DNA of 64,000 bases from an uncultured virus (IMG/VR IMGVR_UViG_3300038960_000189). Taxonomy: Duplodnaviria > Heunggongvirae > Uroviricota > Caudoviricetes. Position 1 is the first letter of the stretch; each line of letters begins with the position of its first letter. A program made the translations under genes and the position numbers. Positions 6,883 through 56,527 of this stretch are shown here, piece by piece. The notes under the pieces are model-generated. The model ran no database searches. It saw nothing but the letters and a program-made list of their open reading frames with translations, and was not told the DNA's origin. The DNA is taken from the IMG/VR virus record IMGVR_UViG_3300038960_000189, one strand, 5' to 3'.

Positions 6883-7152
6883 TTAATATACTTTTTTAAT
6901 TACCCACATAATTTCACCCTCTTCATTTACACTTAATTTGTCTAAACAAATATATTTACTTTTAATTTCGTTTAAAAAATTATTAAATTTGCTAATATAT
7001 TTACTATTACTCATATTGTCGGGATCGCTACTAAATAACTCTAAAAAATAATTTAAATTACTCTCATTAATTCCAAATAATTTATTTTTTACTATTTCAA
7101 AATCACTTACTACAAATATATTATCACTTAATTTATACACTTCATTTTTCAT
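6883..7152 (-). CDS. hypothetical early protein, extremely C-poor coding strand
   Basis: ORF behind the variant cassette at 7178. Confidence 0.6.
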   Translation of the reverse strand: MKNEVYKLSDNIFVVSDFEIVKNKLFGINESNLNYFLELFSSDPDNMSNSKYISKFNNFLNEIKSKYICLDKLSVNEEGEIMWVIKKVY

Positions 7153-7248
7153 ATTTTATATTTTTTAAATTTAACACTTAAATATAAGTAAAAAAGGGCA
7201 AATAAACAAATATTTACCCTATTATTTTTAAAAAAGTTATTCACAATT

Positions 7249-7494
7249 TTATTTTAATAACTCACACTCAAATTCAAACACGTCATTTAATAATAAATAA
7301 AAACTATTACTGCCGTCATATACTAATTTGTCATAATTTAAATTATTATCAAAATCTACATATTCACTTAAATCATCATCTACTTTAATTTTGTCAATTA
7401 AATTATTAACATTATCAGCCTTAACTATTTTACTTATTAACTTGTCATTACTTACGCCATAATAACACTCATTTACATTTACTTTATATCTCAT
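7249..7494 (-). CDS. hypothetical early protein, extremely C-poor coding strand
   Basis: ORF downstream of the variant cassette at 7661, via a 47-aa ORF at 7494-7637. Confidence 0.6.
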   Translation of the reverse strand: MRYKVNVNECYYGVSNDKLISKIVKADNVNNLIDKIKVDDDLSEYVDFDNNLNYDKLVYDGSNSFYLLLNDVFEFECELLK

Positions 7495-7749
7495 TATTCA
7501 TTTATTAAAATTACTACTTTATTTATCTCGTCTAATACTTTACTAATATTAAATTCACTACTATTAAACGTCATAAATAAATCGTCTTCACATTTATATA
7601 AACAATTTAATAACTCATTTTTTTCACTTTTACTCATATATTATATTTTTAAATTAACACTTAAATATAAGTATAATTTTTCAAATAAACAAATATTTTA
7701 GCAGAAAAGTTTAAACAAAGTGCTTTGTAATTCAAACCTATTTGTACTG

Positions 7750-7825
7750 AAAGTAAGAAAGGAGCAGGGCGATGAACTCCTACTCCTTATAGAGATATGG
7801 CTATTTGACGCATAGCTACGTGATC
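7750..7825 (-). ncRNA. candidate 3'-UTR sRNA 1: pseudoknot + CAUAUCUCU seed + intrinsic terminator
   Basis: Minus strand CGUAGCUAUGCGUCAAAUAGC-CAUAUCUCU-AU-AAGGAGUAGG(loop)CCUGCUCCUU-UCUUACUUU; paralog at 25050-25135. Confidence 0.6.
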
Positions 7826-9708: not shown

Positions 9709-9909
9709 TCATATAATACTCACATATTTTTGAAATACATCATTTAGTTCTTCTGTAACTACTCCGCCTTCTGATATTGGAGAATCTAATAACATTTTCA
9801 TAAATTCAAATGCCTCTCCGAACTTTCCCTCTACTAACATTTTTTCAAGTAGATCAAGCTTTGTTTCCTTAGGTAAACTTAGTACCCAATCCTTTTCTTG
9901 TACTGTCAT
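9709..9909 (-). CDS. hypothetical protein
   Basis: 66-aa ORF directly downstream of the ncRNA candidate. Confidence 0.6.
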   Translation of the reverse strand: MTVQEKDWVLSLPKETKLDLLEKMLVEGKFGEAFEFMKMLLDSPISEGGVVTEELNDVFQKYVSII

Positions 9910-9925
9910 AATATTTTTTAATTGT

Positions 9926-10399
9926 ATTGAATGAATTAAAAAGAGAAGATCGATTTGGTAGGATTAGCAGCCTACAACTCAAATTGCTGTGTAATATATG
10001 GTGACTTTAAACGTTGATTGTCTTCAACTTACCCTTATTTAGAATCGGCCAGATTCTTAACATTAGATAAAACCACTACAGTAGTTTAAATGCGTTACCC
10101 CCAGCACAAGGTTGTTCCGCCATAAAACTGGATTTGGGTTTCCCGTACCAGTACACCATTACAGAATAGCTTCTAGATGTCTTTAGAAGTTATTTGAGAA
10201 CCATCATCGAGGTTGTTATCCTCTGCTGGCTTCCATTTGGAAGATTTTCCAGTAGCCCATCGGCTTGATGCTTGTGCCTTATACCCTTCTGATTAGATAT
10301 TTTTCAGCCACAAATCTACAACTTCTTTCCCGTCGGAATTTCGTTGCCTTCTCTAATCTCTTTCGAGATATGCTTTTAATACTTCAATGAACTTTTATA
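9926..10399 (-). ncRNA. large structured non-coding RNA candidate (~470 nt)
   Basis: No ORF of 60 aa or more, raised GC, own class II promoter (10406-10434), nested long-range helices closing the 5' and 3' ends, and more than 8 local hairpins including GAAA tetraloops. Confidence 0.75.
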
Positions 10400-10463
10400 T
10401 AATTTATAATAAGAAATTTCTAAACTAAATCCAAGACTTTTTCTTATATTGTTTACTAATTAA

Positions 10464-10868
10464 TTAACGTATCAACGTTATTGTTCCAGTTTTAATTGTC
10501 TTCATGTCCCATAGGAGTCTATACACATATGTGCCTGTTGGACAGGTCCGTCCTCTGTAACTTCCATTCCATCGGTCTCCAAGGGTTGGTGCACTAAAAA
10601 CTTCTTGTCCCCAACGGTTATAGACCTCTAAACAAAGGTGTCCTATATTCTGACCTTTAACATAAAAAAGGTCGTTGATTCCATCACCATCAGGTGAAAA
10701 GACAGTTGGTATATAAATAAGCTGAGTCTTAGGAACATGTATAGTGTTAGAAACACTTTCTATTAATGTATCACCATTCCTGACTGCTTTAATACGATAG
10801 ATATCATACTCCTGTCCGGATACATTCAGTGAGCATATAATTAATAGAAGCTTAATCAAATTCCTCAT
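10464..10868 (-). CDS. small secreted protein with T9SS type B (gliding motility-associated) C-terminal domain
   Basis: Signal-peptide-like MRNLIKLLLIICSLNVSG; IYIPTVFSPDGDGINDLF, VYNRWGQEVF, WNG, GTYVY, GTITLIR-stop. Confidence 0.9.
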   Translation of the reverse strand: MRNLIKLLLIICSLNVSGQEYDIYRIKAVRNGDTLIESVSNTIHVPKTQLIYIPTVFSPDGDGINDLFYVKGQNIGHLCLEVYNRWGQEVFSAPTLGDRWNGSYRGRTCPTGTYVYRLLWDMKTIKTGTITLIR

Positions 10869-11258
10869 CTTCGCCATCATTATCATATGGTGTATCTTCC
10901 AATTTATAATATTTGATTCCATCTTTTGTTTCTCCTAGCTTCCATGGCAAATTATAGCCCATTAATTCATCTAATGCTGCTATCATATTATTTGATACAA
11001 GATAATCAATAGTTTCCAATAATACTATTCTCATTTAAACTTATTCCATTAATTTTTGTACTAACCATTTAAAATCTGTGTGATTTCTTGTTGCTAACAA
11101 TCTGAAAGATATTTCATCTGCTAATTGGTTAGCATCCTTTTTTGTTCGTAGCTTTTCATTATGATAATGTTCAGCATACGCTTCTAATATTGTACTCAAA
11201 ATAGTACCATTTGGGAATTTATCTTGGTTTTCTTGTAACCATGTTGTTGGATCCATTA

Positions 11259-12737: not shown

Positions 12738-13127
12738 TTATTTGTATTGAAGATTATGTTTAAAATACTTTATCATTATTCGAGCTGAACTGTAATTTGT
12801 AGCTAATGGAATGTCATGAACATCACATAATCGCATTAACATTGAAATATCTACATCGTGTGGATGTTTATCTAATGGGTCTCTAAAGAATAATACACAA
12901 TCGATCTCACCATTAGTTACCATAGATCCTATCTCAGCATCACCACCTAACGGACCGGAGGCTACAGTTTGAACTTTTAATCCGGCATTCTGTATCATGG
13001 TACCTGTTGTTCCAGTACCAACCAACTCTACTTCTGGTATCTTGAAGAACTCTAACCTCTTCATGATAAAAGACACCATATCAGCTTTTTTACCATCATG
13101 TGCTATTACTGCTATCTTCATTTGCAA
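12738..13127 (-). CDS. mgsA: methylglyoxal synthase
   Basis: IAVIAHDGKK, TGTTG, SGPLGGDAEIG, FFRDPL, HPHDVDISMLMRLCDVHDIPLATN; catalytic His/Asp set intact. Confidence 0.95.
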   Translation of the reverse strand: MQMKIAVIAHDGKKADMVSFIMKRLEFFKIPEVELVGTGTTGTMIQNAGLKVQTVASGPLGGDAEIGSMVTNGEIDCVLFFRDPLDKHPHDVDISMLMRLCDVHDIPLATNYSSARIMIKYFKHNLQYK

Positions 13128-16326: not shown

Positions 16327-17022
16327 TCATTTCTTTTTCTTTTTATGAAAGGTAAACTTGGTCAATTCGTTAACTCCTTGTTCAAATTTATGCATTTCAA
16401 GCTTAACTCGTTTCTCTACTTCATCTTCTATAAATCCATTAAATTCTTCATTAACTTCATCAAAATCTAATTTTTGTTTTTTCATAAGATAAATTTCGGT
16501 TGCTCTTCCTTTTCGATAAGCTTCTGACATAGTTCCTAGTGCAAACTTTAAAACTCCAATTACGATTAGTAATATTCCTCCAATAATTCCAAGTAAGACT
16601 TTTTCAAATAAATTCAATCCTGTTTGTTGTATTACAACCGGTGCACCGGATACAGGTGCCGGTTTATTAGACGCAGCTTCTGCTTTCTTATCACTATATT
16701 GTGCAAGGTAGACTGTAATGTCATTAATTGCATCATCTCCTAAATGTTCATAAGCTGGCATTGCCATACCGTTATATTCTTGAAATATTTCATTTGCATG
16801 TTTGTCACCAGCGTCTCTAAGTGCTTGATTATTTTTTATCCAAGATTTTGTCCAATCCTCCCCTTGATTTTTAACAACATTCTTCAAGGCTGGACCTACA
16901 ACCTTTTTTTCCATGTTGTGACACGAAGCACAATTGTTTCTAAATAATTTTTTTCCATTATCATAATCTTGAGCACATATACTAGTGATGAAGATTAAAG
17001 GTAGTAAGAATAGTTTTTTCAT
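16327..17022 (-). CDS. membrane-anchored monoheme c-type cytochrome
   Basis: Signal peptide, GKKLFRNNCASCH (CxxCH), GPAL, distal Met in MAMPAY, Pro/Ala linker and TM helix. Confidence 0.9.
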   Translation of the reverse strand: MKKLFLLPLIFITSICAQDYDNGKKLFRNNCASCHNMEKKVVGPALKNVVKNQGEDWTKSWIKNNQALRDAGDKHANEIFQEYNGMAMPAYEHLGDDAINDITVYLAQYSDKKAEAASNKPAPVSGAPVVIQQTGLNLFEKVLLGIIGGILLIVIGVLKFALGTMSEAYRKGRATEIYLMKKQKLDFDEVNEEFNGFIEDEVEKRVKLEMHKFEQGVNELTKFTFHKKKKK

Positions 17023-26913: not shown

Positions 26914-28311
26914 TTACATTAAGTTAGTATTAATATTTTTTAAACAGATATAATAACACAAACAAATACAAAGCCCAATAAGAAATATAAAATCTTCAAT
27001 TTCGTTTCTACTAAATATACTAGCGCCATATGGAGAATTAGGAGTAACCATAATTTTACTAGAAAAAATTAACTGATTGTTATATTCAATATTTATAATG
27101 TAAACACCAGCTGAAACGTCTAAAAATAATTCATTAAATCTTTTAGTTGTTATTGTTCTATATAACATTTTGCCGGAAATATCATATGCTGAAATAATAA
27201 TATTACCACTAAATGGAGGTAACTCTATATAGACTCTGCCTTGTGTATGAGTCGGATTAATTTTTGTTTCTTTAAATCGATTTATGGTAGGCCTAGGTTG
27301 ATAATTATCTAGCATTTCTGATCTATACGTGTTTAGAGATGCTAAGCCTCTAAGCACTTGATTCTTAGTAAAACATACTAAACAATTATTTCCACCATAA
27401 TCCATATAATGTTTTACAAAGACTCTTTCAGAAGGATTGCATGTACTAAATAGAGTATCAGGGCATTCAGCGCTTGGATAGATAGGACCTCCTTGTGAAC
27501 CTGTTTCTGGAATATAGTCTTCTGAACATTGGCCATCATTTCCCCATGGGTGATAGAGGTTTAGCCAATGACCAATTTCATGCACAGCAACCTTACCTCC
27601 TATCCAATTAGAAAATGCAGGGTCAGAATAACTCCATGAGTATTGTTGATTTCCAACAGTTTGCCAATCTAAAACAACTCCATCTGTTTCTTCTGGACCT
27701 CCTGGAAATTGTGCATAACCTAACAAATAATTATATAAGTCACAAACCCAAATATTCAAATACCTATTAGTTGGCCATGGTTCTTTTCCATGTTGATCGA
27801 ATTTTACAAGATTTCCATAATAACTAAACGCCGACATTTGAGTATGTGTTCGAGTAATGCCTCCTGTTGGTAAGCCGTACGGGTCTTCATAAGCCAATTC
27901 AAAGCTTATTTTAAAATTACCGATCCAGTTTTTCAAAGTATCAGTCAATATCGTTGTATCTGGGTTTCTAGCATTAAAGCTTTCATTTAATACTTCTAAC
28001 TGTTGATAAATAACGCTGTCTGGAATATTTTCATTTGCATCATTGTAAACAATATGAAAAACAACTGGAATTATAATATGATGTCCTGACTTCTGTTTAG
28101 GAGCTTTTAAATAGTTTTGAATATCTATTTCTATCTGTTCATATTTTTCTGGGTTAGCATCCTGAAAAGGTTTATTGTACTTGTCTGTAGCACATATATG
28201 TTGTGAATGTACATTAGTAAAAAGTAAGAAAAATAGTAGTATGAATCTAGTAATTTTTATTAGACGGTAATAATCTAGATATATATTCTTTATAGTATTC
28301 TTTTCTATCAA
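26914..28311 (-). CDS. M43 (pappalysin/ulilysin-like) zinc metalloprotease with T9SS type A-like C-terminal domain
   Basis: Cys-switch-like HICAT, IPVVFHIV, YLNIWV, LLGYAQFP, HEIGHWLNLYH, Met-turn YMDY; C-terminal INPT...YDISGK...AGVYII; exact start uncertain. Confidence 0.9.
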   Translation of the reverse strand: MIEKNTIKNIYLDYYRLIKITRFILLFFLLFTNVHSQHICATDKYNKPFQDANPEKYEQIEIDIQNYLKAPKQKSGHHIIIPVVFHIVYNDANENIPDSVIYQQLEVLNESFNARNPDTTILTDTLKNWIGNFKISFELAYEDPYGLPTGGITRTHTQMSAFSYYGNLVKFDQHGKEPWPTNRYLNIWVCDLYNYLLGYAQFPGGPEETDGVVLDWQTVGNQQYSWSYSDPAFSNWIGGKVAVHEIGHWLNLYHPWGNDGQCSEDYIPETGSQGGPIYPSAECPDTLFSTCNPSERVFVKHYMDYGGNNCLVCFTKNQVLRGLASLNTYRSEMLDNYQPRPTINRFKETKINPTHTQGRVYIELPPFSGNIIISAYDISGKMLYRTITTKRFNELFLDVSAGVYIINIEYNNQLIFSSKIMVTPNSPYGASIFSRNEIEDFIFLIGLCICLCYYICLKNINTNLM

Positions 28312-55261: not shown

Positions 55262-56527
55262 TTAAAATTTAAAAAATTTACTAAATTGATTTGCATCAGT
55301 AGTTGATATACTATCACCACCAAATTTCTTATATGTCTTTTTATATGTTGCATATACATTCATTGCATTATCTGGATCATCAAACATATCATGTAATGAT
55401 AAGATAACGTTATATAAATCTTTTGGAATTGCCGTCTCTAACAACTCAACATGATTATTTACTAGTTTACTAACATCCTTTGCAATGTTTACATATAAAT
55501 GAGTATTATGTATAACCATTCTTGGCATACCTTCTTGACTGTATCTATCTAAGCCTTTGTCTGTTTGTCCGCCTAAATAATCATACGTAAAGTCTCTACA
55601 AGCTGGACAATCTATACTACACGGAACATGTTTCGATGTATCGATGTCTACTGTTTTATTAACTCTATTTGCATGCGACTTTCTTCTATATTCATTATTC
55701 TTAGGAAAATATAATTCAGTGAATGTTTGAGTTTTATAATTTCCTGAATGTAAATATGTTCCAAATACAGGATATTGTCCTGGGGAACTAGAATCTGTTG
55801 AAAATAATACTCTATTATCAGTTAATTTGTTAATTAACTTTTGTAATGTTGCTAATATGAAAAAATCAGATATTTTTGATATTCCTAATAAGTGTATGTA
55901 TTTAACATGTTCTTTTTCGAATTCTCGATTCTTTAACATTAAAGCTATAACATACATGAAGTCTACTAATTTTTTAGGACCTCCAATACACCAGCCATTA
56001 AATGCAAAGTCTTTGAATTTATGATACCATTGTTCATATTCTTCATGATAGGTACCTTGAATAACATTTAAGAAATCTGTTTTACCTGTTTGCTTAGATT
56101 CAAAATATTTGAAGTTATCAAAACTGATATCCATAGATTCAGCAAATCTGTTTTCATATTTAGCTCTAGGAGGAATATCTAAATTTGCAGCTACATCTGA
56201 ATTATGTTCTAACCATTCAAATATACGCTCACGAATAGTTCCGTCCCATTTGAGTGCACCAGTTGCTATTTGAAATCCACCAGAATCGCCGAATACTAAT
56301 ACACCATCGTCTAATCCTAACTGGTCACGAAAATCCATTTTTTTAAAATGATGCCCTGCAGTAATTAAAAAATATGGATGTCTCCATTCTTCTGGATACT
56401 CTTTAGAAAAGAATCTGCATGTAGTTCCATCAGAGAACTTCATATTCTTTTTAAAAGCAGATACCATACTGCCGGCAGAAAGTGATGGATAATATATAAA
56501 ATTTTTATCCATCATAGAACATTCCAC
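55262..56527 (-). CDS. TGT-family guanine transglycosylase (DpdA-like)
   Basis: DSGGFQ, LDIPP, VIQG, IHLLG, DSSS, zinc site CSIDCPAC...HN; embedded in the replication cluster. Confidence 0.8.
   Translation of the reverse strand: MECSMMDKNFIYYPSLSAGSMVSAFKKNMKFSDGTTCRFFSKEYPEEWRHPYFLITAGHHFKKMDFRDQLGLDDGVLVFGDSGGFQIATGALKWDGTIRERIFEWLEHNSDVAANLDIPPRAKYENRFAESMDISFDNFKYFESKQTGKTDFLNVIQGTYHEEYEQWYHKFKDFAFNGWCIGGPKKLVDFMYVIALMLKNREFEKEHVKYIHLLGISKISDFFILATLQKLINKLTDNRVLFSTDSSSPGQYPVFGTYLHSGNYKTQTFTELYFPKNNEYRRKSHANRVNKTVDIDTSKHVPCSIDCPACRDFTYDYLGGQTDKGLDRYSQEGMPRMVIHNTHLYVNIAKDVSKLVNNHVELLETAIPKDLYNVILSLHDMFDDPDNAMNVYATYKKTYKKFGGDSISTTDANQFSKFFKF

Follow-up and report, generated by a model that had tools for sequence, protein, structure and literature searches.

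manA RNAs (Rfam RF01745) were first proposed as riboswitch candidates in 5′ untranslated regions (UTRs), as set out in the manA passages of Weinberg et al. (2010; PMC2864571), and for 15 years the class stayed an orphan candidate. A 2026 preprint (bioRxiv 10.64898/2026.07.01.735769) reports closed RNA-only cages in vitro: by cryo-electron microscopy, manA RNAs assemble into a 60-mer and into decamers built from pentamers, with the kissing loops L5–L7′, L8–L9′ and L3–L8′ and a GNRA loop–receptor contact between L6 and P6′ as intermolecular contacts. A duplicated module is not described in the manA passages of PMC2864571 and PMC9964418, and the preprint text at hand lacks the word 'tandem' and has 'duplicat' once, for duplicate particles.

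Here we analyse an element at positions 9924–10392 on the minus strand of IMG/VR virus record IMGVR_UViG_3300038960_000189, an uncultured member of the Caudoviricetes; the whole 64,000-nucleotide stretch is called the window. An earlier note, made from the DNA letters alone, had seen there an ornate non-coding RNA of about 470 nt with its own promoter, and had placed it in a class such as ROOL or GOLLD or in a new one. Our comparison leads us, with moderate confidence, to regard the element as a stand-alone, ~465-nt structured RNA gene of large marine phages that would have the frame of manA with a doubled module, act in trans and associate with itself.

The element is a discrete conserved cassette

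Twenty marine or seawater runs from 11 studies were indexed; four of them were aligned to the window and gave the positions that are invariant among natural variants. A search pattern made from these positions was scanned over metagenome contigs and returned nine loci, namely seven distinct homologs (L122 to L126, L128 and L129), one locus identical to the window (L130) and one chance hit (L127). Further DNA patterns found one IMG/VR contig (L143, record G001) that carries exactly the RNA of L122. The collection of homologs from viral metagenomes that the earlier note had recommended thus yielded seven distinct sequences from marine metagenome contigs, one of them also in IMG/VR. Other searches returned nothing related: blastn of the element and of the 15 kb around it found no match in GenBank phages, the flanking proteins had no relatives in a scan of IMG/VR, three early DNA patterns in IMG/VR gave chance hits or none (nhmmer found no homolog among 121 loci), and a genome_contigs scan gave 29 loci with 0 homologs by nhmmer.

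The window and the seven homologs, eight distinct sequences, were aligned with MAFFT. Clade A consists of the window, L122, L128, L123 and L126, which are 88–98% identical among themselves; clade B comprises L125 and L129, and clade C is L124. Identity between clades is 72–76%, so that the RNA body ranges overall from 72 to 98%. The edges of conservation are sharp in the alignments, beginning at G(U/A)UC.UUGAA and stopping at UUCAAUA. Over 300 bases on each side identity drops to 0.58–0.64, the level of shuffled sequence (0.60), and the flanks are unrelated to those of the window. Likewise, X4 flank contigs differ at 15–23 of ~95–135 nt, compared with 8 of 234 nt in the RNA. Positions 9924–10392 on the minus strand are, in short, a discrete conserved cassette.

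The split DNA polymerase of the IMG/VR contig (two open reading frames, ORFs) is 29–31% identical to that of the window, whereas its RNA is 89% identical. This disparity suggests that the RNA gene either moves between very different phages or is far more constrained than the replication genes.

A covarying fold on the minus strand

RNAalifold, applied to the MAFFT alignment, predicted 121 pairs, 27 of them with compensatory change. Revision by hand and the addition of three loop-to-strand pairings (PK1–PK3) gave a final structure of 125 pairs in ~25 helices (Table 1). Over the eight distinct rows, 97.6% of the 995 cells were paired, compared with 91.7% in shuffles. Both sides had changed in 32 pairs (15.1 in shuffles; 1–7 in slid controls), and the covariation score was 0.258, against 0.139 for the shuffles and ≤ 0.081 for slid partners. 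On four of five measures, none of 500 shuffles equalled the observed value. The covariation among homologs that the earlier note had proposed as a check was therefore found, and its central claim, a large ornate non-coding RNA conserved in phages, is borne out by this fold.

Folding energy was less informative. The minus strand folds at − 121.4 kcal/mol (z − 2.85; 1 of 100 shuffles as good), which is modestly better than the shuffled controls suggested in the earlier note, but the plus strand scores as well (z − 3.10), so that energy does not tell the strand. Because folding energy by itself is only modestly above chance, the decisive evidence is comparative. On the minus strand there are 80 G–U cells, and 97.9% of the pairs are canonical compared with 90.9% on the plus strand; the wobble cells and the excess of canonical pairs together identify the minus strand as the RNA strand. 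All manA matches described below are on this strand.

These data also bear on the possibility that the element is non-functional, being a decayed protein gene or a set of chance inverted repeats. The modest z-score and the equally good opposite strand would fit such a view, which the 32 compensatory pairs contradict. Moreover, conservation is far higher in the element than in its flanks, and the homologs have no conserved ORF, their longest stop-free stretches being 44–89 aa, a range given irrespective of frame and strand. We consider a non-functional element extremely improbable. In the window, the gap between genes 10464–10922 (−) and 9709–9909 (−) holds just two ORFs of ≥ 30 aa, of 41 aa (+) and 37 aa (−), and has a GC content of 0.35–0.41 compared with 0.27–0.33 nearby, in agreement with the earlier description of an ORF-free, GC-enriched gap in a packed genome.

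All complementary segments listed in the earlier note are present at the coordinates that it gives, and four of its five long-range helices are supported. AGAGAAG/CUUCUCU and GAUUUG/CAAAUC are both backed by compensatory changes. In the former, MAFFT mis-registers the 3′ strand by one column in clades B and C; after a shift by one column, the helix has three compensatory positions and forms 7 bp in five of the eight sequences and 6 of 7 bp in L128, L123 and L126, where the first pair is U–U. AUUAAAA/UUUUAAU is part of an AU-rich closing stem found in all eight sequences. AUUGAA/UUCAAU lies in this stem too, although in a register that differs from sequence to sequence; RNAduplex gave an end-to-end duplex of 10–15 bp in every sequence (ΔG − 7.3 to − 10.6 kcal/mol), again with varying register. 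The fifth helix, GCACAAG/CUUGUGC, is broken in L122 and L125 (alignment rows read by hand) and was rejected. CUUGUGC instead lies in a local hairpin, ACCUU/GGGGU, with two compensatory pairs: C–G is replaced by U–A twice in L123 and L126, and the same change occurs in an abundant RNA-library contig. The ten local hairpins of the earlier note all exist, but AAACUAC/GUGGUUU is better drawn as a 3-bp UAC/GUG hairpin, with UUUAAAC pairing with a distant GUUUAAA. The RNAalifold alternatives UUCUGU/GCGGAA and UUUGUG..CACAAG involve invariant columns and are indistinguishable from the hand-revised pairing. Variants in the aligned runs fall in clade A lineages already sampled and are not independent evidence.

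A proposed manA-like frame with a doubled module

Rfam at gathering thresholds assigned no family to any part of the window. At E ≤ 1, cmscan, a check named in the earlier note, gave a single match in the 64 kb: the full manA model at 10153..9953 (−), with 27.1 bits (E = 7.3e-5 in a 901-nt search and 0.0052 for the whole window). The statement that the RNA matches no tRNA, transfer-messenger RNA (tmRNA), RNase P or intron therefore stands (ARAGORN found 0 tRNA or tmRNA genes, and Rfam none), but the kinship with manA had been missed. The assignment to ROOL or GOLLD, or to a class without relatives, is not upheld. As those classes are generally known, they resemble the element in size, ornate fold, phage origin and candidacy for RNA-only quaternary structure; however, the ROOL and GOLLD models gave no match in the whole window at either gathering score or E ≤ 1, the RNA is smaller and made of manA modules, and both of its halves align to the full manA model. 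We regard membership in those classes, or a wholly new unrelated class, as scarcely credible.

Among the seven homologs, the manA model matched the 3′ half in six (18.5–33.9 bits), the 5′ half in six (17.9–25.3 bits) and both halves in five. In the alignment of L129, the 5′ half fits the P3 signature and the three-hairpin junction: P3 of module 1 agrees with the manA consensus UG-aC-UGAAUAAaCUU..UAAgGu. The P1 loop GACG agrees with the manA consensus GAcg. The P3 signature occurs twice per RNA, as UG-GC-UGAAAAAU..AUAAG-GC and UG-GC-GGAACAA..UAAC-GC, and is invariant in all eight sequences apart from one position. A P4-type helix closing a three-hairpin junction (P5, long P6 and P7) is also present twice, with 13 compensatory pairs in total, and its layout agrees with the consensus structure line (SS_cons) of Weinberg's 2010 alignment. 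At the level of sequence, both halves thus carry the manA core signature, a P3 loop UG-GC-(U/G)GAA.AA..UAA.G-GC and, after it, a helix closing a three-hairpin junction. The enclosing helix (P2) and the P9 hairpin with its ..AAUCC loop are each found once per RNA. We infer the equivalences of P2, P8 and P9 from the manA consensus and the 2010 alignment, and the matching of P and L numbers to helices from the pseudoknot lines of that alignment and the loop names of the preprint.

In the architecture that we propose, the manA frame would be present once, as the P2-like helix GAUUUG/CAAAUC, the P8-like helix CUCAAA/UUUGAG and the P9 hairpin with a ..CUAAUCC loop, and the P1/P3/P4–P7 module twice (119 and 123 nt), its second copy nested in the interior of P8. 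The strands CUCAAA and UUUGAG are 210 nt apart and stand where the 5′ and 3′ strands of manA P8 would sit. An extra GAAA hairpin, a 7-bp helix and the AU-rich closing stem would lie around the whole RNA. The modules would be tied together by PK1 and PK2, from the P3 loops to the P8 region, and by PK3, from the P8 region to the P9 loop. PK1 is proposed by analogy with PK2 only; RNAalifold pairs its UUCUG stretch with GCGGAA instead, and covariation cannot test it since it is invariant in all eight sequences. PK2 has two compensatory pairs, the inner ones, both in the L122 lineage (GUCG/CGAC), and its CAGC strand lies just upstream of UUUGAG. PK3 joins the tetranucleotide that precedes AUUCUG to the one that precedes AAU in the P9 loop, as AGCU/AGCU in three sequences, AGCU/UGCU (3 bp) in two, AGUG/CACU in two and in a shifted register in one. 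The position of PK3 is that of the P8-loop to P9-loop pairing marked in Weinberg's alignment (SS_cons_2). A further pairing, of the module 2 P5 loop with the module 1 P7 loop, fits all five clade A sequences, fails in two of the three from clades B and C, and was dropped.

The element thus shares with manA the P3 signature (UG-aC-UGAAUAA..UAAgG), a three-hairpin junction whose middle hairpin is long and variable, the enclosing helix, the P9 loop, the pairing of the P8 region with the P9 loop, the P1 loop GAcg and occurrence in marine phages. It differs in its length (~465 nt compared with ~190), its doubled P1/P3/P4–P7 module, its P8, which is a long-range helix holding the second module rather than a hairpin, its extra outer elements, its non-complementary L5 and L7 loops, its free-standing position in the homologs rather than ahead of a gene, and its likely host, Bacteroidota rather than a cyanobacterium. 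As in glycine riboswitches, as these are commonly described, two homologous structured modules that probably touch are joined in one RNA. In contrast to them, the second module is nested in a helix of the first instead of following it, no expression platform is seen and the downstream genes are not conserved.

Since the Rfam manA model misses such enlarged relatives, the manA family is probably much wider than catalogued. In an IMG/VR contig of 324,925 nt (L178:1150–1300), a stretch between giant-phage tRNA genes has a hairpin GUAGG..CCUAC, then UUUAUGGCGGAAUAA..UAACGCA and then a UGAUAGC..GUUAUCA pairing. It has the same P3-type signature and gives no Rfam manA match at E ≤ 1; by its sequence, this stretch of a tRNA array may encode a further manA-like RNA that has not been catalogued.

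Table 1. Features of the element in the window, listed from the 5′ end of the RNA; helix numbers are those of the final structure
Feature	Position	Strand	Remarks
RNA body	9924..10392	−	block conserved in 8/8 distinct sequences; ~465 nt; ends ± ~10 nt
Promoter-like TTGGAT (10434..10429), 17 nt, TATTAT (10411..10406)	10406..10434	−	candidate, by sequence
Closing stem, 5′ strand (AUUGAA, AUUAAAA)	10372..10388	−	pairs with 9926–9941
Hairpin AUCUC-GAAA-GAGAU	10356..10369	−	helix 1; invariant GAAA tetraloop; one compensatory pair
Long-range helix, 5′ strand AGAGAAG	10348..10354	−	helix 2; pairs with 9942–9948
Module 1 P1 hairpin GCAAC..GUUGU, inner UUCC-GACG-GGAA	10318..10347	−	helices 3–4; 3 compensatory pairs
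Enclosing helix, 5′ strand GAUUUG	10311..10316	−	helix 5; manA P2 equivalent (putative); G–C to A–U in 3/8
Module 1 P3 region UG-GC-UGAAAAAU, hairpin AUAUCU/GGGUAU, AUAAG-GC	10276..10310	−	helices 6–7
PK1, UUCUG with module 1 P3 loop CAGAA	10166..10162 with 10291..10287	−	helix 8; proposed; invariant 8/8
Module 1 junction CAUCA/UGAUG, three hairpins inside	10202..10270	−	helices 9–13; 5 compensatory pairs; putative manA P4–P7 equivalent
Module 1 junction hairpins AGCC-GAUG-GGCU; CUGG..CUUCC-AAAU-GGAAG..CCAG; GAGG-AUAACAA-CCUC	10202..10270	−	
P8-like helix, 5′ strand CUCAAA	10193..10198	−	helix 14; 2 compensatory pairs; 100% paired
Variable hairpin CUUCUA..UAGAAG, then AGCU (10171..10168)	10167..10192	−	loop table
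PK3, AGCU with P9 loop	10171..10168 with 9969..9966	−	helix 15; 2 compensatory pairs; 87.5% paired
Invariant single-stranded 13-nt stretch UUCUGUAAUGGUG	10154..10166	−	8/8 sequences; inside P8-like helix
Module 2 P1′ hairpin ACUGG..CCAGU, inner GG-GAAA-CC	10127..10152	−	helices 16–17; 2 compensatory pairs
Module 2 P3 region UG-GC-GGAACAA, hairpin ACCUU/GGGGU, UAAC-GC	10092..10122	−	helices 18–20; cmscan alignment
PK2, module 2 P3 loop GCUG with CAGC	10105..10102 with 9989..9986	−	helix 20; holds in 8/8
Module 2 junction UUUAAAC/GUUUAAA, three hairpins inside	10006..10090	−	helices 21–24; 8 compensatory pairs
Module 2 junction hairpins UAC-UGUA-GUG; UUAUCU..AGAAUC-UGGCC-GAUUCU..GGGUAA (long); GUUGA-AGACAA-UCAAC	10006..10090	−	
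Apical loop UGGCC of module 2 long hairpin	10047..10051	−	loop table
P8-like helix, 3′ strand UUUGAG	9978..9983	−	directly before P9 hairpin; module 2 inside helix
P9-type hairpin GUAGG-CUGCUAAU-CCUAC	9958..9975	−	helix 25; one compensatory pair; fits manA consensus GugGG..AguAAUCCcaC
Enclosing helix, 3′ strand CAAAUC	9952..9957	−	pairs with 10311–10316; both modules enclosed
Long-range helix, 3′ strand CUUCUCU	9942..9948	−	pairs with 10348–10354
Closing stem, 3′ strand (UUUUAAU, UUCAAU)	9926..9941	−	RNAduplex

Transcription and flanking signals

Contigs from two metatranscriptome runs of two studies are 93–100% identical to the element and cover only 9942–10368 (X15) and 9999–10337 (X16), with a word depth of up to 278 in X16. 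Nothing else of the 2.1-kb aligned region was covered in the RNA libraries: the 700-nt and 900-nt flanks had no cover there and were covered in both DNA runs. These contigs give a weak hint of a discrete transcript of the element.

The letters of the promoter described earlier, TTGGAT-17-TATTAT, are indeed present upstream of the element, but a consensus scanner does not call the candidate. At the same place the homologs have a different conserved block, TGAAAC, ~19 nt, TATAAT, which the scanner does not call either. By eye, all seven homologs have upstream a hairpin and T-run ending the previous gene, then the TGAAAC..TATAAT block and a leader hairpin of varying sequence (GUUAUUAA/UUAAUAAC; GUUGAU/AUCAAC). 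Downstream there are further hairpins with T-runs and, in five of the seven loci, a second conserved block before the next gene (also by eye). None of the flanking hairpins or blocks of the homologs was called by the promoter/terminator scanner.

These observations can be set against the view that the element is a cis-acting leader, possibly a tandem-aptamer riboswitch in which two manA-like modules bind a ligand, perhaps cooperatively as tandem glycine riboswitches do, and control the downstream gene. The original proposal of manA as a riboswitch candidate, in the passages of PMC2864571 cited above, concerned 5′ UTRs, and the invariant loops and junctions could form ligand pockets. In the window, moreover, the distance from the RNA end to the ATG of a 66-aa ORF on the same strand (9709–9909) is ~15 nt, and the scanner called no terminator-like site in between. 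In the homologs, by contrast, the RNA lies between a terminator-like hairpin and the hairpins and promoter-like blocks described above, which separate it from the next gene. The downstream genes of the homologs are unrelated to one another and to those of the window, with no shared family. Neighbouring genes by locus encode DUF3008, an ATP-dependent ligase, a polynucleotide kinase/phosphatase and unknowns, and there are no tRNA genes beside the homologs. The RNA-library contigs end inside the element without reaching the ORF, which is weak evidence, and no expression platform alternating with the conserved fold was found. We therefore think a leader improbable. Because the downstream genes are not conserved and, in the homologs, the RNA has signals of its own on both sides, the element is likely to be a transcript of its own that acts in trans as an architectural RNA and not as the leader of one gene. 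The duplicated-module variant is a free-standing gene, is found in RNA libraries and is common to very different marine phages; we take this as an argument that manA-type RNAs act in trans.

The surroundings of the homologs showed further regularities. In L122, L125, L126, L128 and L129, a conserved block CYCCAGATTTTTTTATGTC lies between the RNA and the next gene, 45–130 nt beyond the RNA, as CCTCC in L122, L125 and L129 and as CTCC/CTCT in L126 and L128. Further downstream in these five loci there is ..TATATAAT, like the block upstream of the RNA (TGAAAC..TATATAAT); judged by its sequence, the TATATAAT block may be a promoter motif of this phage group. In clades B and C (L124:1430–1510, L125:1240–1310 and L129:605–680), the RNA is followed by a conserved ~75-nt hairpin, AAAAURCCRUAAGYGGACUGAC..UAURCGGUAUUUUUUU, possibly a terminator of elaborate form or a further small RNA. 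Two genes lie at most 1.2 kb downstream of the RNA: a polynucleotide kinase/phosphatase gene (L124:2273–2569) and one with an ATP-dependent DNA-ligase domain and a weak RNA-ligase match (L126:1995–2525).

Possible self-association

Five other loop sequences and two GAAA tetraloops are invariant, whereas the apical loop of the long hairpin of module 2 varies by clade and is palindromic in each: GGCC, UGCA and UAGCUA. A palindrome that is kept in each clade despite sequence change looks like a homodimeric kissing loop. By analogy with manA, we tentatively propose, with less than even confidence, that the RNA associates with itself as manA does in vitro, the palindromic loop being a homodimeric kissing contact. 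The two linked modules would then behave like two neighbouring protomers, and the assembly might serve in the infected cell as a scaffold or in sequestration. A stronger and rather unlikely version is that the element is a covalently linked pair of manA protomers that builds RNA-only assemblies in cells, with lineage-specific partner choice by the apical loop and with the cassette moving between unrelated marine phages. The L3–L8′ and L8–L9′ contacts, which join separate molecules in classical manA, would then form partly within one chain. The variant offers structural biology a ready linked-dimer construct and a testable dimerisation loop.

The element could also act in trans by binding protein, as a decoy or sponge that targets an RNA-binding protein, a nuclease or a defence system of the host, or as a scaffold for phage proteins. 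A stand-alone cassette that is 89% identical in phages with 29–31% identical DNA polymerases is in keeping with an accessory gene or one for host interaction; many of the loops do not vary in sequence, and genes for nucleic-acid end repair or joining occur within 1.2 kb in two of the seven homolog loci (L124 and L126). No conserved partner protein stands beside the RNA, however, the neighbours differing in every clade, and nothing points to any specific protein, whereas the sole experimentally known property of the closest family is RNA–RNA assembly. Protein binding as the primary function therefore appears improbable to us, much as the leader does.

Several observations weigh against a stand-alone, trans-acting and self-associating RNA with a doubled manA module. 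As to kinship, every manA score (27.1 bits for the window, 17.9–33.9 bits for the homologs) is under the gathering score of 55.2, and the 5′ half of the window itself has no manA match at E ≤ 10. P8 is not a local hairpin between P4 and P9, its strands enclosing the second module. By inspection, no L5–L7 loop complementarity (UGGU/ACCA, SS_cons_1) holds in all clades; in module 1 the loops at L5 and L7 read GAUG and AUAAC(A/G)A, and those of module 2 read NRUA and an AGACAA-like sequence. Because of the low scores, the lack of a local P8 hairpin and the lack of L5–L7 complementarity, we file the RNA as an enlarged manA variant rather than as a member of manA or a wholly new class. A covariance model of module 1 found module 2 in three of the eight sequences with 15.0, 12.1 and 12.1 bits, no better than chance (16.2 bits elsewhere in the window), so that the case for duplication rests on the Rfam model and the comparison of motifs. 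As to the fold, there are only eight distinct sequences in three clades and thus few independent changes, the structure was partly derived from the alignment used for scoring, the fifth shuffle measure (further pair types) was not significant (116 of 500), and PK1 and several helices are invariant and without covariation signal. As to expression, the RNA-library data are assembled contigs that carry no strand, ends or level, a weak hint by the rule of the tool used, and one DNA contig (X4: 9939–10172) breaks at similar places; the RNA end close to the next start codon in the window, with no terminator, leaves room for a leader role. As to assembly, that of manA is reported in vitro only (10.64898/2026.07.01.735769), for RNAs of < 200 nt, and the palindrome argument is post hoc, with a rough chance estimate of 0.01 before correction for the choice of loop.

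Phage context

The window is a piece, with ~30% GC, of a large phage genome in which every gene lies on the minus strand. Its genes include those for a family-B DNA polymerase, a sigma factor, glycosyltransferases and an endolysin; of the GenBank phages, Microcystis phage Mel-JY01 has the nearest polymerase (44.9% identity). Directly upstream of the RNA, gene 10464–10922 encodes a CHU_C type IX secretion sorting domain (64.7 bits), and the presence of such a protein beside the RNA suggests that the host of this phage is likely to belong to the Bacteroidota. Together with this gene, those at 26914–28311, 16327–17022, 12738–13127 and 55262–56527 form a set of unusual auxiliary genes that point to the same host; among the products are an M43 peptidase with a weak Por_Secre_tail match, a cytochrome c, an MGS-like domain protein and a TGT-like protein. 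At 7000–7750, the G+C content falls to only 18–21%, with a GC skew of − 0.56 to − 0.68, well under the rest of the window.

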